A stretch of 64,000 bases of DNA from positions 205 through 64,204 of the forward strand of contig CAMOTA010000003.1 in the NCBI GenBank assembly GCA_946625225.1, written 5' to 3'. The notes below the pieces were generated by a model. It was not told where the DNA came from and made no database searches. It saw nothing but the letters and a program-made list of their open reading frames with translations. The translations under genes were made by a program, and so were the position numbers. How positions within the stretch are numbered: the stretch's first letter is position 1; every line of letters begins with the position of its first letter. This document shows, piece by piece, positions 21,698 through 47,485 of the stretch. This stretch comes from an uncultured Eggerthellaceae bacterium (GTDB lineage Bacteria; Actinomycetota; Coriobacteriia; Coriobacteriales; Eggerthellaceae).

Positions 21698-22930
21698 CTA
21701 GCCGATGGAGCCGTACATGCTGAACATGGGCAGGTACACCGACAGCAGCAGCACGAACACGATGACGGCCAAGAACACGATGATCATCGGCTCGAGCAGC
21801 GCCATGGCGCGCGCGGTGGCGGTTTCCACTTCGTTGTCGTAGTACTCCGATATTACGTTCATGGTGGATTCCAGCGAACCGGTCTGCTCGCCGACCGCGG
21901 TCATCTCGATGGCCAAGCCGGGCAACGTGCCCTCTTGTTCCAGGCACACGGCCAGCGGCTTGCCGGCTTCCAGGTCGACCACCGTGTTCAGCAGCGAATG
22001 GCCCATGTAGTAGTTGTTTATGGAGCGCGCCGTTACCTCCACGGCCTTCACGATGGGCAGGCCGGCCGACATCATCACGCTCATGGTGCCGGCGTATTCG
22101 CTGGCCGAGCTCATCAGGTTAATGCGACCGATAACGGGCGTGCGAATGCCGCCAAAGGGCAGCTCCACGCCCAGCTTCGACCACATCAGGCGAAAATCGT
22201 CGTTCTTCTTGGCCAGTTTCACGCCGACGATGGCCACGGCCACGATAACAGCCACGAGCCACCACCAGTGCACCCAGAAGTCGGACATGTCGATGACGAA
22301 CTGGGTGATGGCCGGCAGCTCAGAGCCCATCGAAGCAAACGTCTCGCGAAACACCGGCACGGCGAAGATCATGATGATGGCCACGACCACCACGGCAATG
22401 ACCATGACGAACGTCGGGTACACCATGGCGCTTTTCACCTTGGCCTTGGTGCGGCTGGTCTTTTCGTAGTAGTCCTTCAGGCGCGTGAACACGGTTTCGA
22501 GCGAACCCGATTCCTCGCCGGCGCGCACCGATTCGATGAACGTGGTGGGCAGGCCGCTGCCGTGCTTTTCCAAGCTGGACGACAAGCTGTAGCCTGCGGC
22601 CACGTCGTCGGATGCGTCGCGCAGGATTTGCGCGAGCGTCTTGTCTTCTATCTGGTCGGCCAGAAGCTGCAGCGTGCGCACGATGGGCAGGCCCGCGCGC
22701 AGCAAGATGGCAAACTGGTCGCACAGGATGGACAGCGACTTCTCCTTGGCCTTGCGCGTGCCCAGACGCAGGTCCAAATCGCGCGATGCGGCGCCGACCT
22801 CGGTAATCTTCTGCACGATAAGGTTGTTCTCGCGCAGCTGGCGCACTGCCTCTTCGCGGTTGTTGGCCTCGGCAACGCCGGTAACCTCTTCGCCGCTGAA
22901 CGACCGTGCGGTGTAGTTGAATGTTTTCAC
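21698..22930 (-). CDS. pilC: Type IV pilus / T2SS platform protein PilC (GspF family)
   Basis: 410 aa with two T2SSF repeats. Each repeat has the 'G(E/Q)xxGxLE' signature ('VRAGEESGSLETVF', 'AVGEQTGSLESTM') and the protein has 3-4 TM segments. Confidence 0.9.
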   Translation of the reverse strand: MKTFNYTARSFSGEEVTGVAEANNREEAVRQLRENNLIVQKITEVGAASRDLDLRLGTRKAKEKSLSILCDQFAILLRAGLPIVRTLQLLADQIEDKTLAQILRDASDDVAAGYSLSSSLEKHGSGLPTTFIESVRAGEESGSLETVFTRLKDYYEKTSRTKAKVKSAMVYPTFVMVIAVVVVAIIMIFAVPVFRETFASMGSELPAITQFVIDMSDFWVHWWWLVAVIVAVAIVGVKLAKKNDDFRLMWSKLGVELPFGGIRTPVIGRINLMSSASEYAGTMSVMMSAGLPIVKAVEVTARSINNYYMGHSLLNTVVDLEAGKPLAVCLEQEGTLPGLAIEMTAVGEQTGSLESTMNVISEYYDNEVETATARAMALLEPMIIVFLAVIVFVLLLSVYLPMFSMYGSIG

Positions 22931-22959
22931 GGCTCTATCCCGCGCTCCTCTTCACGATG

Positions 22960-24012
22960 CTACCTTGCGTTCCTCTTCACCAGCTCGGGGTCGCGGGCGG
23001 CCTGGATGGCAGTCTCGCGCGATATGGTGCGGGCGCGCACCATCTGCACCAGCATGTTGTCCATGGTAATGCTGCCCAAATCGGCCGTGGTGGCCAGCGT
23101 GTTTTCGATTTGCGGGGTCTTGCCTTCGCGGATGAGGTTGCGGATGGCGTGGTTCACTATCATCACCTCGCAGGCCACGGCGCGCCCCTGCCCGCCGGCG
23201 CGCGGCAGCAGCTGCTGCGACACCACGGCCTGAAGCACCATGGAAAGCTGCAGGCGAATCTGGCGCTGGCGCCCCTCGGGGAACACGTCGACCAGGCGGT
23301 CGATGGAATCGGCGGCCGATTGCGTGTGCAAGGTACCGAACACCAAGTGGCCGGTCTCGGCAGCGGTCAGCGCCGTTTCGATGGTGTCGAGGTCGCGCAT
23401 CTCGCCGATAAGGATTACATCCGGGTCCTCGCGCAGGATGGCGCGCAGGCCCTCGGCGTACGACACGGTGTCGCGCCCGATTTCGCGTTGGTCGATGGAG
23501 CACATCTCGGGCGTGTACACGTATTCGATGGGGTCTTCCAGCGTGATGATGTGGTCCGGGCGCGTCTTGTTTATCTGGTTCAGGATGGACGCGAGCGTCG
23601 TGGATTTACCGGAACCCGTTTCGCCCGTGACGATGATGATGCCCTTCTGGTACGTGGGGAAATCCAACATGACCGGCGGCAAGCCCAGCGTGCTGATGTC
23701 GGGGATGTTGTTGGAAAGCAGGCGGATGGCCAGGCAGACCGAGCGCATGGATTGGTAGATGTTCAGGCGGCAGCGGATGTGGCCGGCATAGGTGCCCGCC
23801 ATGTCCAGCTCGCCCATGTCGGCGATGCTGTCGTAGGCCTCGCCGGCCGCGTCGCGTGCGATGGCCTCGCAATCTTCGGGCGTAAGCACCTGATCGTTCA
23901 GGTCGCGGAGCTTGCCGTCGATGCGCGCGCGGATGGGCACCCCGGCGGCTATGTGAATATCGGATGCGCGGTTAGCCTCGGCCTGCTCGACAATCGTGTC
24001 CATAAGTCCCAT
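22960..24012 (-). CDS. pilT: Type IV pilus retraction ATPase PilT
   Basis: 350 aa. Walker A 'GETGSGKSTT', Asp/His boxes, and the PilT-specific 'AIRNLIREGK' motif. Confidence 0.9.
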   Translation of the reverse strand: MGLMDTIVEQAEANRASDIHIAAGVPIRARIDGKLRDLNDQVLTPEDCEAIARDAAGEAYDSIADMGELDMAGTYAGHIRCRLNIYQSMRSVCLAIRLLSNNIPDISTLGLPPVMLDFPTYQKGIIIVTGETGSGKSTTLASILNQINKTRPDHIITLEDPIEYVYTPEMCSIDQREIGRDTVSYAEGLRAILREDPDVILIGEMRDLDTIETALTAAETGHLVFGTLHTQSAADSIDRLVDVFPEGRQRQIRLQLSMVLQAVVSQQLLPRAGGQGRAVACEVMIVNHAIRNLIREGKTPQIENTLATTADLGSITMDNMLVQMVRARTISRETAIQAARDPELVKRNAR

Positions 24013-24027
24013 TGCGTTCCCCTTGCC

Positions 24028-25716
24028 CTAGTCGGTGGTATAGATGGTGCGGCTTACTTCATCGGCCGTGGTGATGCCCTTCAACACCAGGTCGCGTGCG
24101 TTTTCGATGACCGGTTGGAAACCCGATTCGCGCACGGCCGCCATAAGCTGGTCGCGCGGAAGCTCGCGGTGCACGGCTTCGCTGATGGCGCGATTGATGA
24201 TAAGCGACTCCGCCACGACAATGCGCCCGCGGTACCCGCTGTTGAAACATTCCGAACAGCCCTCGCCACGGAAGAACTGCACATCGGGCGTGTTGGGATT
24301 CATGCCGAGCGCGCGCATTTCCTCGGGCTCGGGCGTGTAGGGCTGGCGGCAGTGCGGGCAAATGCGGCGCACCAGGCGCTGCGAGATTACGCCCTTCAGC
24401 GCCGTGGCCAGCATATACGGCTCGATGCCCATGTCGGCCAGGCGGTCCAGCGTGGAAACGGCGTCGCCCGTGTGCAACGTGGACAACACCAAGTGGCCCG
24501 TGACGGCGGCGCGCATGGCAATCTCGGCCGTTTCGTTATCGCGAATCTCGCCGACCGAAACGATGTCGGGGTCTTGGCGCAGGATGGAGCGCAAGCCGCT
24601 GGCGAAGGTCATGCCGGTCTTCTCGTTCACCTGAACCTGGTTCACGCCTTCCACGTTGTATTCCACCGGGTCTTCCAGGGTGACGATGTTCACCTCTTCG
24701 GTGTTCAGGCGGTTGATGATGGTGAACAGCGTGGACGACTTGCCCGACCCCGTGGGGCCTACGACCAGGATAACGCCTTGCGTGTTGTGGATGAGCTGGT
24801 TGTACACATCCAGGTTGGTGCCGTAGAAGCCCAGCTCTTCGGGCGTGGACTGCTTGGCTTCGCGGTCGAGGATTCGCATGACTATCTTTTCGCCATGCAC
24901 GGTGGGCAGCGTGGAGGTGCGCAGGTCGGCCTCGTGCATGCGGATGCGCACGATGGCGCGGCCGTCCTGCGGCACGCGGCGCTCGGTAACGTCCATGTTG
25001 CACATAATCTTGATGCGGCTCGTAACCGATTGCTGCAGCTCCTTGGGAATGGTCAGCGTGTTGTGCAGCAAGCCGTCCACGCGCATGCGCACGTTCACGA
25101 TGTCTTCCTGCGGTTCGATGTGGATGTCGGACGCCTTGTCGGAGATGCCGCGTTCGATGATGCTGTCGACCAGGCGGATGGAAGGCGCCGCGCCTTCGGC
25201 ATCGCCCACCTCGCTTATCTGCGTGCCCACGTAGTCCACGGACTGGCCGGTTTCCTGTTGCATCTCGCGAATGGCGCGCTTGGCGCCCTCGGTGCCGTAC
25301 AGGGCCGATATGGCATGATCGATGCCGCTTTGCGTGGATATGACCGGCACGACGCGGCGGTGCGTGGCGGCGCGCACTTCCTCGGTGGCGATGAAGTTCA
25401 GGGGGTCGGCCATGGCCAGGTACAGCTCGTCGCCGCGCGTGCGCACGGGCACGACCGAGTATTTCTTGGCAATGTTCTTGGAAAGCACCTGCGCCATTTC
25501 GGGAGCGATTTCGGTCTCGGCAAGGTCCACGTAGTCGATGCCCAGCTGCATCATAAGCGCATCGATAAGCTGGCGTTCGGTGATAACGCCCGTTTGGATA
25601 AGCTCGTCGCCCAAACGGCGCTTGCTTTCCTTCTGGGACTTCAGCGCCGCGCCCAGCTGATCGTCGCTGATAACGCCGGCATCGACCAGAAGGTCGCCTA
25701 GTCGCATGTATTTCAT
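24028..25716 (-). CDS. pilB: Type IV pilus assembly ATPase PilB (GspE family) with N-terminal MshEN-type domain
   Basis: 562 aa. The N-terminus carries two tandem copies of 'RLGxxLhxxGhIxxxxLxxALxxQ'. Walker A is 'GPTGSGKSST'. The tetracysteine 'CPHC...CSEC' Zn motif is present. Confidence 0.9.
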   Translation of the reverse strand: MKYMRLGDLLVDAGVISDDQLGAALKSQKESKRRLGDELIQTGVITERQLIDALMMQLGIDYVDLAETEIAPEMAQVLSKNIAKKYSVVPVRTRGDELYLAMADPLNFIATEEVRAATHRRVVPVISTQSGIDHAISALYGTEGAKRAIREMQQETGQSVDYVGTQISEVGDAEGAAPSIRLVDSIIERGISDKASDIHIEPQEDIVNVRMRVDGLLHNTLTIPKELQQSVTSRIKIMCNMDVTERRVPQDGRAIVRIRMHEADLRTSTLPTVHGEKIVMRILDREAKQSTPEELGFYGTNLDVYNQLIHNTQGVILVVGPTGSGKSSTLFTIINRLNTEEVNIVTLEDPVEYNVEGVNQVQVNEKTGMTFASGLRSILRQDPDIVSVGEIRDNETAEIAMRAAVTGHLVLSTLHTGDAVSTLDRLADMGIEPYMLATALKGVISQRLVRRICPHCRQPYTPEPEEMRALGMNPNTPDVQFFRGEGCSECFNSGYRGRIVVAESLIINRAISEAVHRELPRDQLMAAVRESGFQPVIENARDLVLKGITTADEVSRTIYTTD

Positions 25717-25878
25717 GAAGCGCGCTCCTTGCAGTCGTTCGTTTGCTAGCTGCTATTGTACTCGTTATTACTGGTAAACCACCACAGACTGCACGAATCG
25801 GGCGGCTTGTCGCTTCCGTGGAAATTACGGAGTTCACACACCCCTCGCACTCGACCGCCCGAACGGCGCAGAGTGAAC

Positions 25879-25937
25879 TGTGACAATACCCCGTAGGCTT
25901 TGTAACAATGTTACAAAGCCTACGGGGTATTGTTACA
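25879..25937. promoter_or_regulatory. 59-bp near-perfect palindrome between the 857-aa pilin-like gene and pilB
   Basis: TGTGACAATACCCCGTAGGCTTTGTAACA A TGTTACAAAGCCTACGGGGTATTGTTACA. The arms are 29 bp with one G:T position. The element is AT-richer than its surroundings, has no U-tract on the minus strand, and begins 13 nt after the stop at 25950. Confidence 0.8.
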
Positions 25938-25949
25938 TTCCGAGGGCGC

Positions 25950-28523: not shown

Positions 28524-29116
28524 GCTCTCTCCTCCAACATGACCGCCTTCACCTCGTACACGCCGCCGACCTCGTCGGGGATGCTGGCCAAGGATGCATC
28601 GCCCGGGCCGATCACCTGCAACCCACGGATGCGGAACAGGTCGTTTGCAGAATCGTATTCGAGCTCGCCCTCGAACGACAGGCCGAGCGAATCCGTAATG
28701 GCGGCTGCAGTTATCAAATCCGCTTCGCCATCCATCGCGGTCGTATCGGGCCCGCTCCCGCCCTCCGCGCTTTTGTACACTTGCTTCACGATCCTGGCAT
28801 CGGTCGTGCCTGCGTCCTTCGTTTCGAGCCGGCACCACTGGCCCAGGGCGTCTTCGTAATAGCGCTGATCCCCGACTTCCATCGTGCCAGTCGCCAGGCT
28901 CAGCTCGTCGCGCAATGTCGTGGTGGCCGTTGAAAGCAGGGTCTGCGCGTTCGAGCCATCGACGGCGCGCGTATACGTTCGCGTTGCCACGGGAATGCCC
29001 ATGGCAACCATCCCCGTAAGGATGACGAACAGCGCCAGGGCAAGCAGCATTTCGGTAAGCGAGAAGCCGCGCTGGGAATCGAGAGCTGGGCGAATGGGGT
29101 TCGTCATATCCACCAC
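28520..29116 (-). CDS. Minor pilin / pseudopilin (prepilin-type N-terminus)
   Basis: 198 aa with a GTG start. 'NPIRPALDSQRG|FSLTEMLLALALFVILTGMVAMGI' (Phe+1, Glu+5). Confidence 0.85.
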   Translation of the reverse strand: MVDMTNPIRPALDSQRGFSLTEMLLALALFVILTGMVAMGIPVATRTYTRAVDGSNAQTLLSTATTTLRDELSLATGTMEVGDQRYYEDALGQWCRLETKDAGTTDARIVKQVYKSAEGGSGPDTTAMDGEADLITAAAITDSLGLSFEGELEYDSANDLFRIRGLQVIGPGDASLASIPDEVGGVYEVKAVMLEERA

Positions 29117-29118
29117 CC

Positions 29119-30374: not shown

Positions 30375-30424
30375 ATAAGGGGAGCACCCCCCAACTCTGG
30401 ATAAGAGCCGGGGTGCGCTTTGCC

Positions 30425-39400: not shown

Positions 39401-42400
39401 GCCGCCGTTGCCGGATTCTGCCTTGTTCCCGGTTATTCTAGACGTACCGGAAACCTTGACCGTGCCCCCGGCGAGCCAAATCGCGCCGCCGTCGCCGCTC
39501 GTTGCAGTGTTGCTTTGAATCGTGCCCGTTCCGCTCAGGGTGATGGCGCTGTTTCCGGAATGGTAAATCGCGCCGCCCTCAGGCGCGCTGCAGTTCTGGA
39601 TTATGCCGCCGATGGCGATATCTCCGGCAGTGGCGTTAATCGCACCACCACCAACAGCGTTCTGGATCATCGCGCCAGAGCCAATCGTCAAGTCACCCGC
39701 GCTCCGAATTACCGGAGAGGTTGCTTCTACAGAACTGCCTTCCAAGGTCACGTTCGTTATCGTCAGCGTACCGTTGTTGGTGAACAGCGGCACATCCGCC
39801 AACTCGGCCGTCCTGGTAATAACGGCCACATGCCCCACACTCTCCGCGGTCGTCAGCGTGATATTGCACCCGTTCGGAATTTCCACGGTATCCGCTGCAG
39901 GCATGAGATAGTCAGTCAGCATCTCGGCAGTTGCCGTTTTCGAGGCGATTTCATTCTCTACGTAATCCACCATACTCCGCAGGGTATAGAAATAATGATC
40001 GTCTATCCTGCAGATCGCCTTCGGGCTGTTGGTCAGGTCTACTTTCTTTTCTGAATCCAACGTGAAAGAAACCGAGGTGTTGTCCGTTACCGACATCGGG
40101 CTGGTCGAGCTTTCAACGATGGATCCGGTCCTTGCCGCAAGCGTGTAGTTCTCGTTACCGCTTTCGGCAATGGTGTATTCGCCCTTGCCGAGTCCCTTGA
40201 TCCTGATTTTCGTGCCATCCGTCACGGTGAATGTAATCGTGCCCGGCTCGGTCCCGTTGGCGGGAGTGGCAGTCACGGTCGCGCTCTCCGCACCGTCCGC
40301 AGCATAGCTTTCCTTTGTTATTGCCGTAGAGCTGATGGTCGCGGTAAAGCTTGATTCGCTGAAAATCGCATTCTCTCCGCTCTCGGATGTGTCCACCGTT
40401 TTGCTGATCTGGAAATCGTAGCCGCGCTCGGTATAGATGGCATAGATGGTCGGCGTCCCGGACAGGGGAAGGTCTTTCCACGTGGCCCCGTCAAAGCTGT
40501 ACTGCAGGGTATTGTTCTGCACGCTAAGCTGCATGGTCAGGGCATCGCTCGTGTCCAGCTCGGAGCTGTTCTCTGCGCCTGCGTTGCCCGCGCCGATCTT
40601 CACATAGCTCAGATACCGCTCGGACAGGCCATCGTCAAGCACGGGAGGCATCCGGAAGTTGTTCCCGTTCTGGCTAATGGCAAAGCCGGAGAGCGGAATC
40701 TCGAAGTTCTCGTTCTGCGCAACGGTTTTTCCATTCATGGTAAGCAAGGCGTGGCTATAGGTCACGGAATTGCTTTCCTCGATGCTTCCCGTCGTTGAAT
40801 TCTCGAGGCAGCCCGTAATATCCGTCAGCGTACCGTCAGCCGTTTCCTTAACATAGCGGATTCTGGGCATGGGGTAGTAGATGTAGTAAAGCTGGCTATC
40901 CCCCAATTCGGATATCGTATTCCCATCGCCGTCTTTCAATACCAGCTCGTAGACATCGCCTTCGACCTGGGCATAGGCAATCGACACAACCTCCGTGCTC
41001 CCCACCGTAATGGCGCTGCCTTCCGAGCCGGTACCGGACATGACCGCACCGAAGGCGTAGGTATTCGTATCGCCCCTGAACACGCCCTCGTGTTCAACCT
41101 GATGCGCTTCGTCCCCTTCTCCTTCAGTCGTGGAATATGCGACTGCCGGTAGTTTTGCAAGGAGCGTTTCGCTTGTTCCCAACGCCAGGTCAAACTTGTA
41201 ATTCGCCTCTGTTGCGTTTCTGAGCGCGGTATCCCTTTGGATAATCCCGCCGTTGGTGCCGTCATTCTCCACCATCGCAACATGGACTTCCACGGGAAGG
41301 GCCTTGTGGGTGTTGGTAAACGCCACGTTCTGCGTGCCGCCGGAGCCGGTCGCGGTATACGTGTACCGATAGGGCTCGGACTCCTGTTCTGCTCCATTTA
41401 TCGCTGTCGTGAAGGCATCGTTGGCCGTCTGCGTGATCCTGGCGGTTTGGGCGGTCACCGTGGTCGTGGTGGTTACTTCACGCGTATTGCCGCCATTGTC
41501 CTCGCCCTCTGTCCGGCTGATCGTTTCGCTGTAGAACAGAATCGACGAATTCGCCTCGCCGTTTTTGAGGATATAGGGCTGGTTGCCTTCCGCAGCAGTG
41601 TCGAAAATCGTTTCGGGCGTTCCGGTCGTCGTGGTCTCTGTCGGATCGCCGCTGTCTTCCCATTCCCCGCTGTCGTTCTTCGTCTGCGCCTGCACGGACA
41701 CCGTAGTCGTAGTAGCCTCCGTCACCAGCAGATCGAAGGTAAACGGCGTGTCCATGACGGCGCCGGTTCCTACGGTCTTCTCGTCGAACATGACCACTGT
41801 GGGCTGCTGGCTGTAATAGACCACATAGAGCTGTGGCGCGTAACCGCAACTTGTCCAGACCGCGTTGTCCCCGGCCTCTGTAGCGTATTCAAATCCACGC
41901 CAGGCGTTCCGGACTCGCAGCGTTGGAACCGGGTCGCTCGGACCGACGGCGTTCGTGATCAGGCTCAGATTCGAGGCATTCATCTGGGTCTCGCCGCCCG
42001 CGTCCACGCTGCCAATGGCAAAGGCATAGTTCGTGAACCCGGACGCAAGGTCCAGAGGTGCAGTGAGTTGGCTCGACATGTTGTATTCGCCGAGAAGGGC
42101 ATCCGTCGCCGTCGGAGCTTCAGACGTTGTCGCGTTCTCCAGCACGCCGCTCGAGGCCATGCTCTTGTAGCCGATGTTCAGCGCCTTTTTCTGATAATAG
42201 ACGAAGTACAGCTCTTCGCCCTCGTCGAGGACGCTGAAGGTCGACTCTCCCGCATATTGCACCTGTATCTTCTTGTTCTCGTATTTGATGGCCGTGACCG
42301 CATTGTCCTCGAAAATGGAATCCAGATCGCTCGCCACGGCGACGAAAGCAAACTCGTAGTCGCCGGAAGGCGTCGTCACATGGCTTGCTCCGTTCAGCGC

Positions 42401-45400
42401 CGTCTCCGTAGCGGATACCGTCACGTCCGTAACGTTCCATCCGTCCGCACCTGTCTTATCTTCCAAATCAGCCGCAGATGCATCCACGGCATGGACGGGC
42501 ACGGTGTTTGCCTCGCCCCAATAGGCGTACAAATCCAGCGCACCGGTTACCTGCTGCGAAAAGTCATATTCCGTATAGGAATACGGATTCGCTTCGTCCC
42601 CCGTGGCAGTTCGTGTTGCCCAGTAACGGAACAGGCGCCCATCCTCTCCCGCATAGACGGGGACCTTGTCCGGTTCTGAAATGGTGGTTCCGAGATTTGC
42701 GGTCTGGGAATAGGCATCGCCTGTTCTCGTATAAACTGCCGTGTCCCACGCTTCGTCACCCCAATTGGCATCCGCGCTGTTCAGGTTATACGTCACCTGA
42801 GCACCCCAGACGGCGTAGAGGGTTGTGGCTTCCGAAACGCCGTATATTACATCGCCTTCATTGGAATAGTATGTCGCGGAATCATCGCAGACGGCTTTAT
42901 CACTCCACCCAAGGAACGTGGCATTGGAACCCGACGGCGCGGAAAAGCCCGTGCCGTCGCTCAGCTTGAACTTGCTATTGTTGACCAGTCCGGAAACGGT
43001 GGCAGTTCCCGCAGTCGCATCGACCGTGCCGGATGCCGCATTCCATTCATCGGTAGCACTATCCGGAGCCTTGCCGAAGTTCACATCATTTTCAGCAACC
43101 GTGCCACCATTGGCGTTATAGACGATAGCGGCCGTTCCGACTTTCGCGTAAACAGCATCCAGATAGACGACGTCCTTGCCGCTGACACGCTTCGCATCGT
43201 CTGCATGCAAGGTGAAGGTTTGACCCGGCGCATAGACCGTAGCACTGTCGTCGCCCCGTACCTGCCAGCCGACAAAGGCGTATCCTGCCGGAGCAATGGC
43301 AGACTGCGCTAGGGCAACCTCTGCATAGTCGGCATAGCCTTCGGGCAGCAGAGCGCTCTTCGTCCCGTCTTCTAGCGTTCCATCGCCTGCGTCGTAGGCG
43401 AGGTAATAGGCGCCCTCCTTCTTCCAATGGAGACGAAGCTTGGTATTGTGGTCGGTATGCTGGCTGAAATCGTAGGGCTCTGCCGCCTCTCCGATCTCGT
43501 TTCCGTCTGCATCCAGGTACACCTCGTACCATCCCGCATAGGTATAGACGCCCGGGGCATATTCAAAGGTGGTATCCTCCGTGGCTAGAGCTGGATTCTG
43601 CGTATAATAGGTATGGCGATCCGCCCAGCCATTGCTTCCTCCCTTGCCGTCTCCGGAATGATCGACAAAGTACCAGGTACCTGAACTTGACTCCACATAG
43701 TCCCGGGTAACATGGGTATACTCGCCGATCGGCTCGCCTTCAAAGCTGGACCAAAACCAGGTCGCACCGGTTCCAGCGCCATTTTCTTCAGCGTACAGAG
43801 CGCCGTAATTCGGATCGATGGTTACCATATACCAGCCGGTTTCCCATCCGGCGTATACGGTGAGGTCATGGTCCGGCATTTTGCTGAGATTCGCGGGGAT
43901 CGTGCAAGCCTGGTCTAGATACCAGTTGGAAAACACATATCCGCTCCGGCCGGAGGTCGGTTCTTCGGGGATTTTATCCGCGATAGATGCATCATAGGAG
44001 ATGTCCGGGTAATTCACCGGAAGGCTCTCGCTCGTTTTTCCTGCTTCCGTAACAGAATCTACGAACGTCAGCGTATAGGACCCGCTGGGGACATAGCCGC
44101 TGTTCTTGTCGTAATAGACATTCAGCACCAAACCGCCGTCCGCGGTGATGCTTTTTGCATCATCGCAGCGAGAATAACTGTACCCCTCGTAAGACCTCTG
44201 CGTATACTCGGCCGGAACAGACGCCGACGCTCCGATTGTGCCGGTAAGGATTGCGCTTTCGGCGTAGGAGTAGGTCTTGTTTTCATCCTCGAGGCCATCT
44301 GCGTCGGACGGGTTTTGCCTCCAGACGACAACCTGGTAATCTGCCGTCGTTGCTGCCGTCCAATATGCGTATAGCGTAGTGTCCGCTCGTAGATAGAGCT
44401 TTCCTGCGCTGATATACGCGCCTGCATCATCCGCGCTGCTTACCAGGCTGCCATCCGCGTTGGTAATCTGGGCACCATAGTTCACGGTTTCGACCGTGCT
44501 GCTTCCTTCTGTCGTGGTCGCCAGCGTTCCCGTGTACCAGCCGCCAAAGGTAAAGCCATCCATGGCGGTAGTCGGAAGCGGAACGGGAATTGCGTCACCG
44601 GCGAAATAGTCTGCCGGAGGCACATAATCCGCTCCCTTACCCGACTGCGCCGCATAATAGGACAGCCGGTGGACTTCCCTGAAAATCGGGTAGAGATGCT
44701 TCTCTCCGGAGACCGTAATACAGCCTTCCGCATCGGCAAAAATGGCCGCGACATCGTTTCCTTCATCGTCCTTTGCCGCGCCAGGGGTAGTGATCGGCGT
44801 TTCAGACCATCCGAAGAAGGCCATCTTTGCACCGCCGCTGCTGGTATATGTTGTGCTGAGGTCGCTGATGTTTACCGTAGCGGAAGTGGTGGCGGACTCT
44901 CCTTCCCCAGCCGTCACAAGCTCTGCCCTGCGCGTATAGGCCACCGGGAAAGTCTTCGAATCAGAGTCATATTGGTCATGGAAAATGACCGTCGCATAGC
45001 TTTTATAGACAGCGTACAGATCGACTGCGCTGTTTTCCGTGATCGTTATGCTATCGAAGTTATAGGGTTCATCATCGAGCGTTAACGAGCCGCCAATCGT
45101 GCTTCCTTTATACCAACCGGCAAACACCTCTGTGTCCGTAGATGCCAACTGCGGCACGATAAGTTCCTCGCCGCTGGTAATTGTCTGCTTGAAGACTGTA
45201 CGCCCCTGAGAATCCGTAAAGGAATACTCTTTATATGTGCCGGGCGCGTCCTCGTTCGGAATCCAGAAGGTATACGTGCTCTGGGGCGTAACGGTCTGGC
45301 CGTCGCTGCCAATCAAAACATACACCGAGAATCCGTCGGTCTCGAAGTCAACGGATTCTCCGCGTACGGTTGCATCCATGACCCGGGCATCTTCTCCGGC

Positions 45401-47485
45401 TCCATCGGGAATATGAACCACGTCTACATTCGCATAATTATTCAGGTCGTCCTTCAGCAGCTCGATGCTTACCGCAACGTTTGCATTGGGCTGGTATTCC
45501 TGGTCGGTGGCGGGGTCGATCAGGGAAATGTCGAAAGCCTTGGCCATCTGCACGCTTTCGGCAGTCGCGCCCAACGCGGCAGCGCTTTGGGCTACGTAGG
45601 CGTCGTAACCTTCTGCGTCCTCGCGTATCTCGGACACGACGAGCTGCGCGCCATCGGGGATGCCGGCTGTGGCGTCGAAGGTTACGCTTATGCGGTATTC
45701 GTTGCCATCGGAAGCCGTCAGCGTCTGGTCCAGCGTGTGCACGGCCAGCTGCCCCGCGGTCATGCCCGACCAGGCAGCGCGGTAGTCAGCAAGCGCCGAC
45801 GAGCTTTTCGCGCCATCCGACTCGCCTTGTTCGACGCGTCCGCCCAGGGCATACGGATCCCACACCAATGCAATGCCCTCGCCCGACTTCAGCGTTGCGG
45901 GGGCCTTCGTGCCCTGCGAGGCGAACACGCGGTCGCCGAACGCGCCGTCGTTCAGTCGATAGCCTTCCAAGGCGCCCGTCTCTTCCAGGCCGGGGTCGTC
46001 GAAGGGGCTGGCGCTCAGCCACAGCGCAGGTTCGTAGCCGGGGTCGGCTTCGCGCACCTTGGCGAACTCGTCCTTCAGCTCCGACTGCGCCTGAAACGCC
46101 TCGACGATCCAGGCATCGCCTTCGAGCTCTTCGGCAAAGGCGTCGGTTACGTGCACCACGGAGCGCCACGAACCCAACACCGTGATGTCCGCACCACGGC
46201 TCTCCCACGAGATGAGCGGCGTGGCGATGCCTGCCAGCGCGAATTCGCTGAACGTGTCGGTGTAGAAGACCAGCTTCGCGCCGCTTTTCTTGGTGGATTG
46301 GTTGTCGATTCCCAGCGGCTCGTATATGCGCTCGTGCGTGTCGGGGTCGTTCCCTTCGTAGCGCGCGACCTCCAGCGCATCGGTTACCGTCGCGTCGATG
46401 GTGGAGGTTTCGATGGTCACTTCGACCTCGGAAGCGGGCACCACCGACTTGCCATTGCTCTGGATGTCGATTTCCAGGAAGCTGGTATGGAACAGGTATT
46501 CATCGTCGCGCACTTCGAAATCGTCTGCCAACGCCTTCGTGCGCGCATTCATCTCGCGCGCGGTCAGGAAATGCTCGGTGTCGAAGGGGCGGTTCTTGAA
46601 CTTCTGGCTTTTGGGATCGTAGCCTTCAGGCGTGCGGATGGCCTGCACGACCGAAAGCTCGGCGTCGTCGGGAATGCCCGCCTGCTCGTCGAAGGCAACG
46701 GAAACGACGATGCTTTTGCCTTCGGCGGTTTTGATGGTCTTCTCGATGGTCGTTTTGTCGTCGGATTGCGCGCGCGCTTCCCGGTCGGCCGAACCCGCCG
46801 GAGCGGACGCGGCGCTGCGCGCCGAGCCAGCCGACGCGGCAGACGAACTGCTCGCCCCGGCGGCGCCGTGCGATGCATCGGCTTCGGCTTCTGCGTCTTC
46901 GCCAGCAGCGTTTGCGTGTTTTGCTTCGGCCGTGCCGTCGGCTTCGCTTGCCGGCTCCTGCGCATAGGCCAGCCCGTCGGCAAGCGCCGATGGGCTCTGC
47001 CGCTCGGAAACTGCATTGTCGGTGGTGCGAGCGTTGCCCTCCTGCGCGACGGCAACAGGAGCTTGGCTCGTGGGGGCGTTGGCGTCCAGCGCGGCGCGGG
47101 TGGCAATGCCGCCGCCATTGGGCAGCGCCGACGTGGCCTGAGGCGCCGCGGCAGCGCCCGTCCGTGCGTCCCATTCGTTGTTTGCAGTGCTGACCTGCTG
47201 CAACACGGAATTGGCGAAGATGCCCGTTCCCGTTGCAAGCGGTACGATGCCCATGGCGAACAGCAAGCCCGTAAGCAGCACGCCCACGACGACCTGAACC
47301 ACCGCGAATCCGCCATAGGTACGCAAGTTTTCCCAGGTGCGCTGCAGCTTTTCTTCTTTTGGTGCGTGTATCATGCTCATCACAACGCTTTCCACCGCCT
47401 GGCTGTCTCGCCCGCTGAACGCGCGTGTGTCGGCAACCGAGACGGTGCAACTTGGTCCCGTCTTCTCACAGACCTCTTCAACCAT
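30425..47485 (-). CDS. Giant (up to 5,686 aa) multi-module surface adhesin with pilin-like N-terminal helix; first gene of the pilus operon
   Basis: Uninterrupted 17,061-nt ORF. M36 (47380) is a better-placed start with GGTGGAAAG upstream. The N-terminus is 'KLQRTWENLRTYGG|FAVVQVVVGVLLTGLLFAMGIVPL' (prepilin-like, Gln instead of Glu at +5). An Ala/Ser-rich linker follows (~46750-47200). Next are two 'ISVxFDxxAGIPDxAxLVV' domains and ~8-10 'GYxFxGW' Listeria-Bacteroides (Flg_new-type) repeats (~42450-45250). There are four beta-helix modules rich in 'GGAI / GGGV(Y/W)' PMP-like repeats (~38000-40025, 34340-37075, 33100-34215, 31440-32465). The protein ends with two SpaA/Cna-B-like domains (~30428-31280). 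It has no C-terminal LPXTG or hydrophobic tail. Sub-domain coordinates are approximate. Confidence 0.85.
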   Translation of the reverse strand: MVEEVCEKTGPSCTVSVADTRAFSGRDSQAVESVVMSMIHAPKEEKLQRTWENLRTYGGFAVVQVVVGVLLTGLLFAMGIVPLATGTGIFANSVLQQVSTANNEWDARTGAAAAPQATSALPNGGGIATRAALDANAPTSQAPVAVAQEGNARTTDNAVSERQSPSALADGLAYAQEPASEADGTAEAKHANAAGEDAEAEADASHGAAGASSSSAASAGSARSAASAPAGSADREARAQSDDKTTIEKTIKTAEGKSIVVSVAFDEQAGIPDDAELSVVQAIRTPEGYDPKSQKFKNRPFDTEHFLTAREMNARTKALADDFEVRDDEYLFHTSFLEIDIQSNGKSVVPASEVEVTIETSTIDATVTDALEVARYEGNDPDTHERIYEPLGIDNQSTKKSGAKLVFYTDTFSEFALAGIATPLISWESRGADITVLGSWRSVVHVTDAFAEELEGDAWIVEAFQAQSELKDEFAKVREADPGYEPALWLSASPFDDPGLEETGALEGYRLNDGAFGDRVFASQGTKAPATLKSGEGIALVWDPYALGGRVEQGESDGAKSSSALADYRAAWSGMTAGQLAVHTLDQTLTASDGNEYRISVTFDATAGIPDGAQLVVSEIREDAEGYDAYVAQSAAALGATAESVQMAKAFDISLIDPATDQEYQPNANVAVSIELLKDDLNNYANVDVVHIPDGAGEDARVMDATVRGESVDFETDGFSVYVLIGSDGQTVTPQSTYTFWIPNEDAPGTYKEYSFTDSQGRTVFKQTITSGEELIVPQLASTDTEVFAGWYKGSTIGGSLTLDDEPYNFDSITITENSAVDLYAVYKSYATVIFHDQYDSDSKTFPVAYTRRAELVTAGEGESATTSATVNISDLSTTYTSSGGAKMAFFGWSETPITTPGAAKDDEGNDVAAIFADAEGCITVSGEKHLYPIFREVHRLSYYAAQSGKGADYVPPADYFAGDAIPVPLPTTAMDGFTFGGWYTGTLATTTEGSSTVETVNYGAQITNADGSLVSSADDAGAYISAGKLYLRADTTLYAYWTAATTADYQVVVWRQNPSDADGLEDENKTYSYAESAILTGTIGASASVPAEYTQRSYEGYSYSRCDDAKSITADGGLVLNVYYDKNSGYVPSGSYTLTFVDSVTEAGKTSESLPVNYPDISYDASIADKIPEEPTSGRSGYVFSNWYLDQACTIPANLSKMPDHDLTVYAGWETGWYMVTIDPNYGALYAEENGAGTGATWFWSSFEGEPIGEYTHVTRDYVESSSGTWYFVDHSGDGKGGSNGWADRHTYYTQNPALATEDTTFEYAPGVYTYAGWYEVYLDADGNEIGEAAEPYDFSQHTDHNTKLRLHWKKEGAYYLAYDAGDGTLEDGTKSALLPEGYADYAEVALAQSAIAPAGYAFVGWQVRGDDSATVYAPGQTFTLHADDAKRVSGKDVVYLDAVYAKVGTAAIVYNANGGTVAENDVNFGKAPDSATDEWNAASGTVDATAGTATVSGLVNNSKFKLSDGTGFSAPSGSNATFLGWSDKAVCDDSATYYSNEGDVIYGVSEATTLYAVWGAQVTYNLNSADANWGDEAWDTAVYTRTGDAYSQTANLGTTISEPDKVPVYAGEDGRLFRYWATRTATGDEANPYSYTEYDFSQQVTGALDLYAYWGEANTVPVHAVDASAADLEDKTGADGWNVTDVTVSATETALNGASHVTTPSGDYEFAFVAVASDLDSIFEDNAVTAIKYENKKIQVQYAGESTFSVLDEGEELYFVYYQKKALNIGYKSMASSGVLENATTSEAPTATDALLGEYNMSSQLTAPLDLASGFTNYAFAIGSVDAGGETQMNASNLSLITNAVGPSDPVPTLRVRNAWRGFEYATEAGDNAVWTSCGYAPQLYVVYYSQQPTVVMFDEKTVGTGAVMDTPFTFDLLVTEATTTTVSVQAQTKNDSGEWEDSGDPTETTTTGTPETIFDTAAEGNQPYILKNGEANSSILFYSETISRTEGEDNGGNTREVTTTTTVTAQTARITQTANDAFTTAINGAEQESEPYRYTYTATGSGGTQNVAFTNTHKALPVEVHVAMVENDGTNGGIIQRDTALRNATEANYKFDLALGTSETLLAKLPAVAYSTTEGEGDEAHQVEHEGVFRGDTNTYAFGAVMSGTGSEGSAITVGSTEVVSIAYAQVEGDVYELVLKDGDGNTISELGDSQLYYIYYPMPRIRYVKETADGTLTDITGCLENSTTGSIEESNSVTYSHALLTMNGKTVAQNENFEIPLSGFAISQNGNNFRMPPVLDDGLSERYLSYVKIGAGNAGAENSSELDTSDALTMQLSVQNNTLQYSFDGATWKDLPLSGTPTIYAIYTERGYDFQISKTVDTSESGENAIFSESSFTATISSTAITKESYAADGAESATVTATPANGTEPGTITFTVTDGTKIRIKGLGKGEYTIAESGNENYTLAARTGSIVESSTSPMSVTDNTSVSFTLDSEKKVDLTNSPKAICRIDDHYFYTLRSMVDYVENEIASKTATAEMLTDYLMPAADTVEIPNGCNITLTTAESVGHVAVITRTAELADVPLFTNNGTLTITNVTLEGSSVEATSPVIRSAGDLTIGSGAMIQNAVGGGAINATAGDIAIGGIIQNCSAPEGGAIYHSGNSAITLSGTGTIQSNTATSGDGGAIWLAGGTVKVSGTSRITGNKAESGNGGAVRCSGTVVIEVDQGGSITGNTAMEGGAIYAETGTISISETAEGVKPAVTGNTATTGNGGAIRVDTGSVTVSGGSVSNNNAASGNGGAVYSNAARVAISDTAEIRSNTAKEGGAVYAASGAVEVSGGTVDNNTASTGSGGAIHAGTGTVTVSGGSLSGNTAAAGSGGAIHAGAGTVTVSGGSLSGNTANADGGAINAIGGTVTVAAHAEGNSESEGQIIAPIIAGNTATTGNGGAICAGTGAVSITGTTLAGNSAGANGGAVYANTGAVTATNSTFGGTAEDAGNIAGTSGGAIYAGSGNVAVSGGSMTGNTATAGDGGALYVGSGAATVSGYTESGATTYTQLTNNSAASGNGGAVFLNSGSLALTSVTATGNNAINGAAVFANTGRVNVSAGSYTGNTATDGGAVGVGGENTRLYFTGDAQITGNKLGTADDAPQSNVYLDQDSDAIINIDTLGGNADIGIYVPDAVVPTRSVPGARFAVYTSNSNAAKVKNDRYSSLTVQSDTAAKKLYWGNGVRIEVMYLASYASGLPNGTSAGRGTTVADVGMFYPTINGEGEVALSELASDVYTKSSAVRNGLSSHKNATFGAAFYYDAPDYSYDISKLVWNTTAEKWQVEMRNGQTADLPGRIYIIYSEPGYVSIENNTEEQLRISDLRMTVNGTEVSVLNSAESTGYGMVFAKNGAIRTALLPIAADDLTLAARQSVNLLIPGGQNMAYKLDGSFETTTGGSVRLRRGAEASLIEETVIVASDGSFDQLTGTTLTGAGTYNIIFGDNKIICKVVDADGVEHPYGKISDAIADIVATTGANPPYALATAKKAAIQMVTDYLLPASDVVNIPKGYDITITTAAKEVGLYPYIGEADRAILSRDSENTNSMITSEAGDADSKLALRNLIIDGKSVRGNSAGGAVSISYFAVEVDTVDFVNVYAQNGGALYIDDHFGSNSNTARANSVLTVMGCTFSNCNSTMQSGSRIGGGAIHFYGDQLTVTDCTFENCNGGDQAGALFHRIDGNYNSWTTISGCSFTNCSAKAAGGMELDSKYIDVSDCTFEHCVATERNGGGFNAFMTNNANPGTGTNCTITLTNCSFNDCQAYAQNGGGFRSTAVYTTVNNCTFTNTSGNFGGGIAMSNTNALRGEVYGCTFDRCTATGQGGGVGSNAKELIIGDYTYTDDEGREQTVHTTISNCTSSNEGGGVYHGRDVDGSSIAITNATISANQTKNSSKSGGGVWTNARTAAIDGSTITDNTCTNAGGGVYAYSYTSLDIADSDISRNIASGAGGGVWFDANNEANRNIQVLTVKGSTIDGNTSGGAGGGVYTLAKTVTVGASETKADSSGNMARSSISDNTAKTNGGGVYQRRNVDGSSLVIANADIKGNTANNTNTGTDQGGGGIFAGVRTLTVTDSTVSNNTAKSNGGGILFEINSDNARNAMNLTVTGSTLDNNTSDANGGGIYTRAKTVAIQASGSGDDAVPTTISNCTAKWSGGGIYQNRNAASSALTVTGSTISGCVSNDASTDNNPPRGGGGIFAYVQTLTVTDSTISNNRAVRNGGGINAPWDGADYALIIDSSKVTGNTSNYRGGGVFTRSQLTLRNGTEITGNRLTTNTAADCAGVYLNNNRTLFVGPSDAEEGFTDTVIVRGNTTANSTLSDLRLWDNGTQNNAASVYVYCNLSNESEIRVVNANKVGTQFGTSQFASPHGFADDFAVFKADASTLHGIIDRTDESGTKIIWAGPPIAKITDGNGNLLYLKTQTLEDGTTKGSSPAIFDRLGTGKVNNVFNGYSSAAAFNMLCTTNTPELYTADGVLYVGDSYAIKMLENYVTPADMNVVYVESRTITFTTAGKGDTDGYPYVGAGTRATVTRGSDVDSGRTLLNAKGNLILEGIVIDGGAENGITPNGSTRCMWVEHDNCTVILGENAMLQNGNTTGDGGGVNIAKGTFSIQGGVIRNCSGKDGGAIYNKSAKPLTFTAGSIYQCTASGKGGAVYNPGTNNSGGFTMAGGTISGCTAAQGGGVYVVNNKGIPFTMTGGSIINNSATTRGGGIAIEGANSRLYFSGKVNISGNTATKDGQSVACNVELDQSSKAVINTNNGGLYAGSYIGVYVPGDEDTNPYKDYGGERDNFGTFATNDNTSTFYSFVNDRNGLKGGIIENPDPNTIYWIQIFSLEVRKEVVSGNSTSADGNEAFLFKVNIRGDATVAGQLNAAQIDSDDGEYGEMHFDSNGSETTTAVFSLKAGESISGVNLSEGLTYEVIEYLTVDQAKRYAAMPMNGYSSATEKLTFDGVEYTVVKANTYTSTIGENKSRTDVDPYTSSLTFTNLMPVCKITDMSGNLLYRKYDWNKATNKEGEGPDGGSSTRQPNYYAPAVYTELIGDNGAFNALEGTLYTSNGSNPSSYAVSNGVQIQMLIGDYSLEEAVEASESKVTLTTASAGDALFPKQDAGTTSTIRRAFADGSMFNVTGDLTFASIILDGAKGSYTVSASGGIANVPSGGKLTIQDGATLQNSKIGESHNGGAVHVANGGTVTMTGGVVARNESDGNGAGIYLEEGGLATITGGTINRNESDGDGAGVYLAEGSTLNLSGNPSFGGTGRDVSGNITTTNGNFKSGDLVAQKNGGKAYSKARQDIYIAESQDAPASVVLTGNLSVDAGSIWVWAETENHYAMMKPFATIASGAVNGATYAAFRNARPDSLTNCGEDNYLSGSSGENASFIYWAGGFDVSFKKVDGFGTAMPGATFTLYADSACTAALKQGGEDAAAVSADGTATYKDRTGASLDEGIVLFEQIPAGVYYMKETDTPDGYVNALTKDESGNPVSNVYIVLVGDAALQGAGSGVLEGITQEQVAAQTGTGGDKKDAAVFLIDPSTGKAVATPDIAKYGIMNISTVERKAILKKVGDASAPLEGAVFEILRHDHTLVSGTDISGATTTSFTSGASGVYFIGMLPYGTYYLRETTIPSGYRQVSSGDDGNWFTLTVSESGVGYMTDDSNTINTLNPETTAPE
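38841..39002. repeat. 81-bp tandem duplication inside the giant ORF (27-aa unit 'GSGGAIHAGxGTVTVSGGSLSGNTAxA')
   Basis: Units 38841-38921 and 38922-39002 are ~93% identical. They sit within a longer degenerate repeat tract. Confidence 0.85.

Follow-up and report, generated by a model that had tools for sequence, protein, structure and literature searches.

A rumen actinobacterium, represented by an Eggerthellaceae MAG of the Coriobacteriia, carries a pilus locus of type IVa-like character that includes the retraction ATPase PilT. In the window, by which we mean the whole analyzed stretch of 64,000 nucleotides, eight closely spaced genes on the minus strand span 21698-47485 (ORF coordinates; Table 1). 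They encode a giant protein, four minor pilins (303, 114, 198, and 857 aa), PilB, PilT, and PilC. We modestly favor the reading that they represent a type IVa pilus (T4aP) with a tip complex of the four minor pilins, and that the giant is the non-pilin, Sec-exported partner of this complex. The evidence for the whole system is genomic.

The earlier note on this DNA proposed an undescribed system of a high-GC, actinobacterial monoderm. The host is indeed an actinobacterium. The claim of an undescribed system was overstated; the module is mostly clostridial, and both T4aP in Actinobacteria (predicted in Denise 2019, PMC6668835) and modular pilins (Raynaud 2021, PMC8179133) have been published. 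In the literature, no earlier description was found of the five-gene module that consists of the four minor pilins and the giant.

Table 1. Features of the pilus locus in the window. The arrow (↓) marks the cleavage site.
Feature	Position	Strand	Remarks
Promoter-like site TTTAAA-16-TGnTAAAAT	47489..47516	-	upstream of the giant gene
Giant surface adhesin (candidate)	30425..47485	-	ORF 5,686 aa; likely start ATG 47380, ~5,651 aa
Minor pilin, 303 aa	29463..30374	-	QQG↓AALPLALLLFLIC...DQRYY, no Glu+5; GspK/PilX-like by position and motif only
Small minor pilin, 114 aa	29119..29463	-	RG↓ETITE; GspI/PilV-like
Minor pilin, 198 aa	28520..29116	-	canonical class III signal RG↓FSLTE
Modular minor pilin, 857 aa	25950..28523	-	RRG↓FTMME; N_methyl, TIGR02532, and GLUG matches
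Perfect 24-bp stem-loop	25883..25933	-	right after the 857-aa stop codon, inside the 233-nt spacer
PilB extension ATPase	24028..25716	-	two N-terminal MshEN c-di-GMP-binding motifs, tetracysteine Zn motif
PilT retraction ATPase	22960..24012	-	AIRNLIRE motif
PilC platform protein	21698..22930	-	two T2SSF domains
Major-pilin-like gene, 143 aa	18589..19020	-	KG↓FTLME
Second major-pilin-like gene, 149 aa	10216..10665	+ (inverted orientation)	N_methyl E 7e-9, KG↓FTLME

Gene Order and Pilus Machinery

From the giant gene to pilC, the gaps between consecutive ORFs are 50, -1, 2, -4, 233, 15, and 29 nt. The recomputed coordinates and gaps agree with the earlier description of eight co-directional, closely packed genes, whose sole large spacer carries a palindrome. 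The palindrome is a perfect hairpin (dG -53 kcal/mol, z -9.2), which is not repeated elsewhere in the window and has no U-tract. Ten other loci do not conserve it at the corresponding junction. In relatives, the adhesin gene occupies the position where this locus has the hairpin. The giant probably starts at ATG 47380, not at 47485, as judged from an RBS (GGTGGA) and the promoter-like site upstream. A 154-aa ORF at 47478-47942 was considered as a gene and rejected; it has no family match and failed the coding-like GC3/GC2 filter. Mobile-element genes are observed near the locus.

The three distal genes had been named pilB, pilT, and pilC, and profile searches confirm these names. PilB matches T2SSE (E 1.8e-128) and MshEN and contains a CxxC...CxxC motif; its score against TIGR02538, 569 bits, is under the equivalog cutoff of 675. 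PilT, with its AIRNLIRE motif, scores 428 bits against TIGR01420 (cutoff 319). PilC matches PF00482 (T2SSF) in two stretches (E 3e-59). The identities of related loci to this locus are 53-62% for PilB, 56-62% for PilT, and 37-51% for PilC. Those of Firmicutes-labelled loci are 52-56%, 55-61%, and 37-41%, respectively. The small canonical pilins noticed before at 3-11 kb from the operon are also present. Both the 149-aa pilin and its 143-aa paralogue have the class III signal peptide of a major pilin; their first ~50 residues are identical and their first ~68 codons are highly similar. The presence of PilT and the resemblance of the major pilins to fiber subunits point to a real retractile pilus.

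Neither an A24 prepilin peptidase nor pilMNO is found in the 64-kb window, and on this point Pfam scans and tblastn (E > 0.3) agree with the earlier note. These genes are missing from the window because the locus was rearranged after pilC. In close relatives, the order is pilC-pilA-pilD-pilMNO, and pilD adjoins pilA in those relatives that have a PilC of 72-82% identity. Here, an AAA-ATPase/PDDEXK_9 gene is inserted between pilC and the 143-aa pilin gene, and the pilin genes show displacement and inversion. Misassembly was rejected as the source of this rearrangement; an independent assembly from another sample has the identical arrangement, with PilB, PilT, and PilC proteins 100% identical. 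The search for homologues of a relative's PilD revealed pilD in relatives and none assignable to this MAG.

Because pilD and pilMNO are gone from the window and the locus is rearranged, pilus assembly might have been lost in this strain. The system of this genome would then be a decaying remnant, in which the rearrangement removed pilD and pilMNO, pilus production ceased, and the genes are heading for loss. The order kept by close relatives and the inserted and displaced genes after pilC are consistent with such decay. We nevertheless consider it unlikely. All eight ORFs are intact, including the 17-kb ORF, which would be prone to stop codons if unselected, and its integrity argues for ongoing selection. 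The same arrangement and the same three machinery proteins recur in the independent assembly, and the PilB sequence by itself is shared without change by five contigs of different samples. The genes for pilD and pilMNO may sit elsewhere in the genome, as they do at the locus L115, where they are rearranged yet present. We infer that this genome still produces the pilus.

Minor Pilins and the Giant Protein

The 857- and 198-aa proteins show N_methyl/TIGR02532 matches and G↓Fxx(x)E motifs. Together with the G↓ETITE of the 114-aa protein, three pilins have Glu at +5, as the earlier note had observed. Each of the four minor pilins has a class III motif that is conserved across its family. The 303-aa protein was assigned as GspK/PilX-like because of its motif, its gene position, and one weak HMM match, to GspK (E 0.0025). 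An HMM scan gave no PilX_N match, and the earlier label of PilX-N-like is not retained. The single-sequence AF2 model of the 303-aa pilin (pLDDT 44) has no usable fold. In the 114-aa family, weak matches to XpsI are seen in 14 of 15 members and to PilV in 8, and the family is also GspI-like. Against PDB sequences, the family profiles of the 303-, 198-, and 114-aa proteins find no match beyond the generic pilin helix at the N-terminus.

The 857-aa protein is a true modular pilin, in which a prepilin methylation motif is combined with a non-pilin module. It is composed of, in order, an alpha1 helix, a small head, Ig-like sandwiches, a helical domain, a GLUG beta-helix, and, at the C-terminus, the conserved motif H(Y/F)GDWP. 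The alpha1 helix, the Ig-like domains, and the beta-helix are seen in the AF2 model (pLDDT 78). The extra modules resemble the non-catalytic part of the S. pneumoniae IgA1 protease. The proposal that this protein is a candidate modular pilin adhesin holds.

At its N-terminal end, the giant has a signal or anchor of the Sec type, then a linker that is rich in Ala/Ser and ~150 aa long, and two "AGIP" domains. They are followed by Listeria-Bacteroides repeats, GGAI-type beta-helix repeats, DUF7601, and C-terminal SpaA-fold domains. The Pfam scan of the whole giant detected Flg_new, DUF7601, and SpaA only. The C-terminus, which ends with ...NPETTAPE, contains no LPXTG, no TM segment, and no anchor. 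The giant would therefore need a partner to stay on the cell. Among 27 giant C-termini, the tails vary, with a partial ...E-T-T-x-P pattern that probably follows the last SpaA strand. These 27 sequences were also searched for a conserved C-terminal plug like that of PilY1, a strand of ~12 residues that binds PilK, and none was convincingly found.

All five proximal genes had been described as pilin-like, with the giant as a giant modular pilin. This stands for the four minor pilins and is not supported for the giant. As a type IV pilin of ~5,600 aa, the giant would be cut by PilD after Gly-Gly (GG↓FAVVQ) and polymerized via its N-terminal helix. Its sequence does offer Phe at +1 after a basic leader whose last residue is Gly, Gln at +5, and a hydrophobic stretch that covers ~22 aa and includes Gly14 and Pro23. 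Giant pilins are also biologically possible, because true pilin-giant fusions over 4,100 aa exist in related genomes (L008, L019, L046, and L017). However, Glu5 is missing, neither N_methyl nor TIGR02532 is matched in the HMM scan, and the GG↓F...Q motif is conserved in no homologue. The unfused giants have Sec-type signal peptides ending in xFA↓A (AxA or xFA sites), and the giant in the window has ...GIFA↓NS. After its hydrophobic segment come a c-region rich in Pro/Gly and a disordered Ala/Ser linker instead of an alpha1C helix and a pilin head. It is very improbable that the giant is itself a pilin. The giant in this window is most likely a PilY1-like partner, Sec-exported by its appearance, and not a pilin. 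Export by Sec is suggested by the N-termini of its homologues. The giant in the window has ~550 additional aa at its N-terminus, including a TM segment and a long linker of low complexity; this region may just as well be a membrane anchor that stays uncleaved, with a tether across the wall.

The giant was compared by tblastn with the sequences of related loci and by a search of representative proteins. It is 50-86% identical to giants from Firmicutes and coincides with a GC dip. Such identity suggests its transfer across phyla.

The Module in Other Genomes

A profile scan with the 857-aa family revealed loci in at least 180 GTDB species. The carriers are rumen and gut Clostridia and Coriobacteriia, mostly clostridial. 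Two cultured members of the Hungate collection, Oribacterium sp. NK2B42 (L075) and Clostridiales bacterium NK3B98 (L077), are among them. Eighty of these loci were kept for the comparison of gene order. The 303- and 198-type genes lie upstream of the 857-type gene, in the same order, in 71 of the 80. The giant is upstream of the minor pilins in 36 loci, downstream in 12, and fused in 6; it adjoins them in at least 54 of the 80 loci, in two phyla. With this synteny and the Sec-type N-termini, a non-pilin, Sec-type protein is encoded with the minor-pilin operon. The module frequently neighbors pilBTC or pilD-pilMNO. A pilB, pilC, pilD, or pilM gene is present within 10 kb in 24 of the 80 loci; by chance, such adjacency would be ~1%. 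Many module loci have no T4P machinery gene within 10 kb.

Complete arrangements are also observed. The locus L070 has the order giant-303-114-198-857-pilB-pilT-pilC-u234-pilD-pilM-N-O-pilA, where u234 is an uncharacterised 234-aa ORF. The Eggerthellaceae locus L124 has giant-pilBTC-pilA-pilD-pilMNO. The earlier note suggested checking gene order in related genomes, and close Eggerthellaceae relatives hold the minor pilins, the adhesin, pilBTC, pilA, pilD, and pilMNO all in one locus.

In the fusions (L046, L017, L019, L008, and L013), the 857-type pilin passes from its HYGDWP C-terminus directly into an AGIP domain. It is the domain that opens the mature unfused giants, and the signal peptide is gone. 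The HYGDWP-AGIP fusion is also seen in the representative protein P0245 (4,232 aa). The giant was joined to the C-terminus of the 857-type pilin independently in at least four lineages. Because of these fusions, the N-terminus of the giant is likely to dock on the 857-type pilin.

Conservation and fusions bear on whether the giant is coupled to the pilus. An independent surface adhesin could lie beside the pilus genes only through a shared surface-structure or horizontally transferred island, with no coupling. Its apparent horizontal acquisition (the identity to Firmicutes giants and the GC dip), its varying place upstream or downstream relative to the minor pilins, and mobile-element genes in the vicinity would fit this explanation. 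It is quite improbable, considering the adjacency to the four minor pilins in two phyla, the repeated fusions to the 857-type pilin, and giants that have no anchoring signal of their own.

A Gram-positive piston similar to type II secretion is a minority possibility that deserves some weight. Here, a pilus or pseudopilus capped by the minor pilins would push the Sec-exported giant through the wall, and the giant would be self-anchored at its N-terminus or released. In Clostridium perfringens, a large protein is reported to be secreted in a T4P-dependent manner (PMC11580942), and the cargo of T4bP systems docks N-terminally on the minor pilin of the tip ahead of its release (a point discussed in Denic 2026). 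The TM segment of the giant is followed by a linker of ~150 aa, enough to span the wall. On the other hand, PilT is present and the major pilins look like fiber subunits. The covalent pilin-giant fusions in relatives would hold the adhesin on the pilin, not free it.

We thus return to the pilus with a tip complex and a giant partner. In our reading, the giant would be functionally similar to PilY1, yet dock through its N-terminus, and be coupled to the pilus-tip complex. PilB, which is predicted to bind c-di-GMP, PilT, and PilC would constitute the motor, and the two small FTLME pilins the fiber. The 303-aa (GspK-like, without Glu5), 114-aa (GspI-like), 198-aa, and 857-aa modular pilins would form a priming and tip complex, comparable to PilHIJK/GspHIJK. 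The giant, exported by Sec, would be the non-pilin partner of this complex. Its N-terminal linker and AGIP domain would be placed beside, and probably docked on, the domain conserved at the C-terminus of the 857-aa pilin. The retractable pilus would present a multi-domain adhesin of ~600 kDa (mass from length).

A wider version is proposed tentatively. In many rumen and gut Clostridia and Coriobacteriia, the four-minor-pilin complex may recruit a separate Sec-exported giant of 1,500 to 5,700 aa, with the N-terminal linker/AGIP region on the C-terminal domain of the GLUG pilin. The slot of the giant may be a hypervariable cassette, exchanged across phyla and sometimes fused in cis.

Should this coupling prove real, non-pilin tip adhesins, an idea developed for Gram-negative bacteria, would extend to Gram-positive-type bacteria, where the docking geometry is another one and the proteins are among the largest that these organisms encode. 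It would be a candidate means for abundant uncultured rumen and gut Clostridia and Coriobacteriia to attach to fiber, to the tissue of the host, or to other microbes. Variation in the manner of a cassette and the apparent transfer of the adhesin from Firmicutes to Actinobacteria point to a specificity of attachment that is exchanged horizontally and a pilus motor that passes down vertically. Since pilin and adhesin occur naturally both split and fused, the docking hypothesis can be put to a direct test.

Comparison with Known Systems

According to current accounts, monoderm T4aP lack an equivalent of PilY1, and their tips are functionalized only by modular pilins. The T4aP operons of C. perfringens and C. 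difficile contain pilB-pilT-pilC-pilD-pilMNO-pilA and minor pilins. Their core machinery genes and gene order are shared by the loci of the relatives described here, and the c-di-GMP-binding domain of PilB is common to both. The host here is, in contrast, an actinobacterium of the Coriobacteriia, and no coupled giant adhesin gene was found reported in the literature for the C. perfringens and C. difficile T4aP.

The giant ends in SpaA/prealbumin-fold domains and DUF7601, similar to sortase-assembled SpaA-type pili and adhesins. Unlike them, it has no LPXTG and is encoded with type IV pilus genes. No sortase gene is present among the ORFs scanned.

The 857-aa protein resembles PilB and PilC of Streptococcus sanguinis (Raynaud 2021, PMC8179133) in having an N-terminal pilin module with bulky domains. 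The fused relatives over 4,100 aa follow the same logic of a module placed onto a pilin; the largest modular pilin cited in that survey is 860 aa. The 857-aa protein differs in its modules, which are Ig-like domains and a GLUG beta-helix instead of vWA or lectin domains, and the largest adhesin in the window is encoded by a separate, non-pilin gene.

In the T4bP systems CofB-CofJ and TcpB-TcpF, a Sec-exported non-pilin engages the tip modular minor pilin by its extended N-terminus (as summarised in Denic 2026). This N-terminal geometry matches the one implied by the pilin-giant fusions. In contrast to the giant, the CofJ/TcpF-type cargos are small and released, they belong to T4bP of diderms without PilT, and there is no sequence relationship.

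The resemblance to the Gram-negative minor-pilin/PilY1 tip module, pointed out in the earlier note, is supported. As in the fimU-pilVWXY1E or pilHIJK-pilC module of Pseudomonas, Neisseria, and Myxococcus, there is an operon of four minor pilins with one member without Glu5 and one GspI-like member. A very large non-pilin, a putative adhesin with variable domains and predicted export by Sec, and a PilB/PilT/PilC machine are likewise shared with the diderm module. The differences are also clear. The host here is a monoderm, and thus there is no secretin. The giant is 3 to 5 times larger than PilY1, and the Pfam scan of its whole length detected no PilY1/PilC beta-propeller (IPR008707). PilY1 docks on PilK by a C-terminal plug (PMC13533445; bioRxiv 10.64898/2026.09.18.752573), whereas the fusions indicate that the giant would dock on the 857-type pilin by its N-terminus.

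Pilus genes and minor pilins

Eight minus-strand ORFs lie within 21698-47485, separated by gaps of 50, -1, 2, -4, 233, 15, and 29 nt. The ORF layout, the HMM matches to PilB, PilT, and PilC, and the pilin motifs largely bear out the earlier note; matches and motifs together confirm the three motor proteins that it named. By sequence, these are genuine genes of a T4aP system. The annotation of the Eggerthellaceae MAG GCA_003452695.1 gives PilB as GspE and the 5,686-aa protein (the giant) as hypothetical. Contigs of several metagenome assemblies, with sample names that point to sheep rumen, contain the same proteins. As the note had stated, A24 peptidase and pilMNO are not found in the 64-kb window, and the two canonical small (major) pilins are encoded outside the operon.

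Features of the locus and its surroundings (window coordinates; a slash marks the leader/mature or signal peptide junction)
Feature	Position	Strand	Remarks
7TM-PAS-GGDEF-EAL protein	57-2294
IS110-family transposase	6489-7793
319-aa ORF	8263-9222		Unassigned; nuclease-like by eye
Inverted repeat, 233 nt	10187-10419, 18817-19049		90% identity
Second pilin copy	10216-10665	plus	Fifth after pilC; inverted, 8.4 kb away
Short intergenic repeats, 59-131 nt	11268-11330, 11476-11606, 13371-13429, 16388-16518, 18443-18505		Inverted copies, 82-92% identity
DUF4143 AAA-ATPase gene	16789-18123
Unrelated genes			Fourth after pilC
Pilin gene	18589-19020	minus	Third after pilC
140-aa membrane ORF	19427-19849	plus	Second after pilC; two TM; no family match
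AAA-ATPase/PDDEXK_9 gene	19846-21669		First after pilC; AAA-ATPase_like + PDDEXK_9
PilC		minus	Distal gene; two T2SSF domains
PilT		minus	Distal gene; TIGR01420, 428 bits, exceeding cutoff; AIRNLIRE
PilB	24028-25716	minus	T2SSE, E 1.8e-128; N-terminal MshEN; CxxC...CxxC
Hairpin	25883-25933		Perfect, 24 bp; dG -53 kcal/mol
857-aa minor pilin		minus	RRG/FTMME; N_methyl and GLUG
198-aa minor pilin		minus	RG/FSLTE; N_methyl
114-aa minor pilin		minus	RG/ETITE; no HMM match for single protein; weak XpsI/GspI in 14/15 family members, PilV in 8/15
303-aa minor pilin		minus	QQG/AALPLALLLF, no Glu5; weak GspK, E 0.0025
Giant	30425-47485	minus	Start most likely ATG 47380
Promoter-like site	47516-47489
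732-aa protein	47975-50173	plus	Predicted secreted; ALAYA/E
HD-GYP-type HD domain protein	51455-52807

The MshEN domain of PilB has the 24-residue c-di-GMP-binding motif in two tandem copies (RLGDLLVDAGVISDDQLGAALKSQ and RLGDELIQTGVITERQLIDALMMQ). Together with the GGDEF-EAL and HD genes of the window and the EAL or GGDEF genes that flank the pilus locus in relatives, this suggests that piliation is under c-di-GMP control.

Four proximal genes code for prepilin-type proteins; the one of 857 aa shares 30-45% identity with hundreds of homologues. Its AF2 model (family alignment, pLDDT 78) consists of a long alpha1 helix, a small head, Ig-like sandwiches, a helical domain, and a GLUG beta-helix. 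This model most closely resembles the non-catalytic portion of the S. pneumoniae IgA1 protease, and no HExxH motif is present in the 857-aa sequence.

The palindrome reported in the 233-nt spacer proved to be a perfect hairpin directly 3' of the 857-aa gene stop codon. It occurs once in the window, lacks a U-tract, and is not conserved at the corresponding junction in other loci. Its position is the adhesin-gene slot of Eggerthellaceae relatives. Possible explanations are a scar left by recombination and an element for transcript processing or attenuation.

The giant and its fused relatives

ATG 47380, which has the RBS GGTGGA, is preferred as the start of the giant, and the promoter-like site lies upstream. 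The N-terminus (...LRTYGG FAVVQVVVGVLLTGLLFAMGIV PLATGTGIFA NSV...) permits a class III leader reading, by which the giant would itself be a pilin. This reading was set aside, as the GG/F...Q motif is not conserved among giant homologues, these have Sec-type N-termini, and a pilin head is absent: after the hydrophobic segment come a c-region rich in Pro and Gly and a ~150-aa linker rich in Ala and Ser. Homologous giants were compared in the retrieved loci and among the 41 matches to residues 36-440 in an exhaustive HMMER search; all those with a visible N-terminus have a standard Sec signal peptide, usually with xFA/A at its end. IFA/NS of the giant agrees with this pattern. Since it also lacks Glu5 and matched no prepilin model in the HMM search, the giant is probably a non-pilin. 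Its body is composed of Listeria-Bacteroides repeats, GGAI-type repeats, DUF7601, and C-terminal SpaA-fold domains; no LPXTG motif, C-terminal TM segment, or PilY1 propeller was found in it. Of the five pilin-like genes claimed previously, four stand as minor pilins, but the fifth probably encodes a giant partner with predicted Sec-type export.

The 732-aa protein, whose gene is divergent from that of the giant, carries a Sec signal peptide and a Big_2 domain. Its C-terminal tail of ~90 aa is extremely rich in Lys and might serve in binding to cell wall or nucleic acid.

In L046, L017, L019, L008, and L013, related loci, a single ORF contains a prepilin leader, the whole 857-type protein, and the AGIP domain, which heads mature unfused giants. 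The fusion point is a near-terminal HYGDWPxPE..VN motif and a short linker, and the giant part lacks its signal peptide. P0245, a representative protein of 4,232 aa, is fused likewise. As the families and junctions differ, the fusions are independent. Joining the 857-type C-terminus to the AGIP domain, they argue that the giant N-terminus would be adjacent to the 857-type pilin C-terminus in the working assembly. The "giant modular pilin" of the earlier note is therefore real in fused relatives (>4,100 aa), but not in the window, where the giant is a separate ORF.

The long 857-type proteins of L020, L049, L076, L081, and L085 (several Clostridia) were ruled out as fusions. Their C-terminal 500-600 residues are duplicated in tandem, two- or three-fold, which brings them to 1,400-2,100 aa; such self-duplication is a second route to a larger pilin, separate from giant fusion.

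Conservation, probable exchange, and rearrangement

Scanning the genomes of GTDB species with the 857-family profile gave 180 loci. The best 80 are mainly from Clostridia of ruminant gut, plus Coriobacteriia. Carriers in Firmicutes are Oscillospiraceae, Lachnospiraceae, Ruminococcaceae, Butyrivibrio, Oribacterium sp. NK2B42, Clostridiales bacterium NK3B98, Mogibacterium, and Erysipelotrichaceae; those in Coriobacteriia are Denitrobacterium, Coriobacteriaceae, and Eggerthellaceae. Gene order, which the earlier note proposed to check, is conserved: in 71 of these 80 loci, the 857-type gene comes after the 303- and 198-type genes, always in that order. A related giant is upstream in 36, downstream in 12, and fused in 6 of the 80, and pilB/pilC/pilD/pilM lie within 10 kb of the module in 24. 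L070 shows the order giant-303-114-198-857-pilB-pilT-pilC-u234-pilD-pilM-pilN-pilO-pilA, u234 being an uncharacterised ORF of 234 aa. In L005 (6204-8079), from Clostridia, and also in L044, a major pilin gene and a Wzy_C (O-antigen-ligase-like) gene are just upstream of the module, which recalls pilin O-glycosylation systems (PilO/TfpO type).

In Eggerthellaceae relatives (PilB 80-83% identical), the adhesin gene is between the 857-type gene and pilB. The adhesin has 5,200 aa in L124, followed by pilBTC-pilA-pilD-pilMNO, 1,561 aa in L123, and 2,118 aa in L060. Such sizes beside conserved motor genes indicate that the adhesin slot is hypervariable and the motor conserved.

Compared piecewise in 300-residue windows, the giant has its best matches exclusively in Firmicutes giants of Lachnospiraceae, Oscillospiraceae, and Solobacterium (50-86% identity; for example, L031 of Lachnospiraceae at 86% and L017 of Solobacterium at 67%). 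Coriobacteriia giants are less similar, and residues 1-600 are nearly unique. The minor pilins have their best matches in Coriobacteriia (38-49%) and PilB in Eggerthellaceae. GC is 0.55-0.59 across the giant gene versus 0.61-0.65 in the flanks, with a dip at ~32000-46000. These observations point to putative acquisition or replacement of the adhesin across phyla, from Firmicutes to Actinobacteria.

Relatives with PilC 72-82% identical have pilC-pilA-pilD, continuing to pilM-pilN-pilO where the contig reaches. The different order in the window is real, as an independent assembly shows it too. All eight ORFs are intact, including that of 17 kb, which argues against decay of the locus. A homologue of the 140-aa ORF (L115:5026-5400, 73% nucleotide identity) is directly upstream of pilD in a rearranged Eggerthellaceae-like contig; the ORF may represent an accessory pilus gene that has gone unrecognised.

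The 233-nt inverted repeat spans the 5' UTR and approximately the first 68 codons of both pilin genes, with 8.4 kb of unrelated genes in between. Through recombination of its copies, this segment could be inverted or the C-terminal halves of the pilins exchanged, and the repeat might be a pilin-variation device. The short intergenic repeats in the rearranged stretch bounded by the pilin genes resemble small mobile or repetitive elements. The transposase, the 319-aa ORF, and both AAA-ATPase genes lie amid the displaced pilin genes, which would fit a rearrangement of the distal half of the pilus locus by mobile elements.

Comparison with known systems

T4aP in Actinobacteria have already been predicted by genome surveys (PMC6668835), and the pili studied there are Tad only (PMC6916266). 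Modular pilins are established, the largest cited in a survey having 860 aa (PMC8179133). Our literature searches found no description of the minor-pilin/giant module. Recent papers show that PilC/PilY1 stays at the tip through its C-terminal strand, which is added to PilK (PMC13533445; bioRxiv 10.64898/2026.09.18.752573), and monoderm T4aP are said to lack PilC/PilY1 and to rely on modular pilins (bioRxiv 10.64898/2026.09.18.752573).

Four minor pilins with a Sec-exported giant partner would replace the five-pilin reading. Conservation and fusions are the basis on which the giant is predicted to be coupled to the pilus tip. From its genes, the locus would be comparable in working to the minor-pilin/PilY1 tip module, but the giant does not belong to the PilY1 family. 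The N-terminal docking implied by the fusions would place it closer to the geometry of T4bP cargo systems, such as CofB-CofJ.
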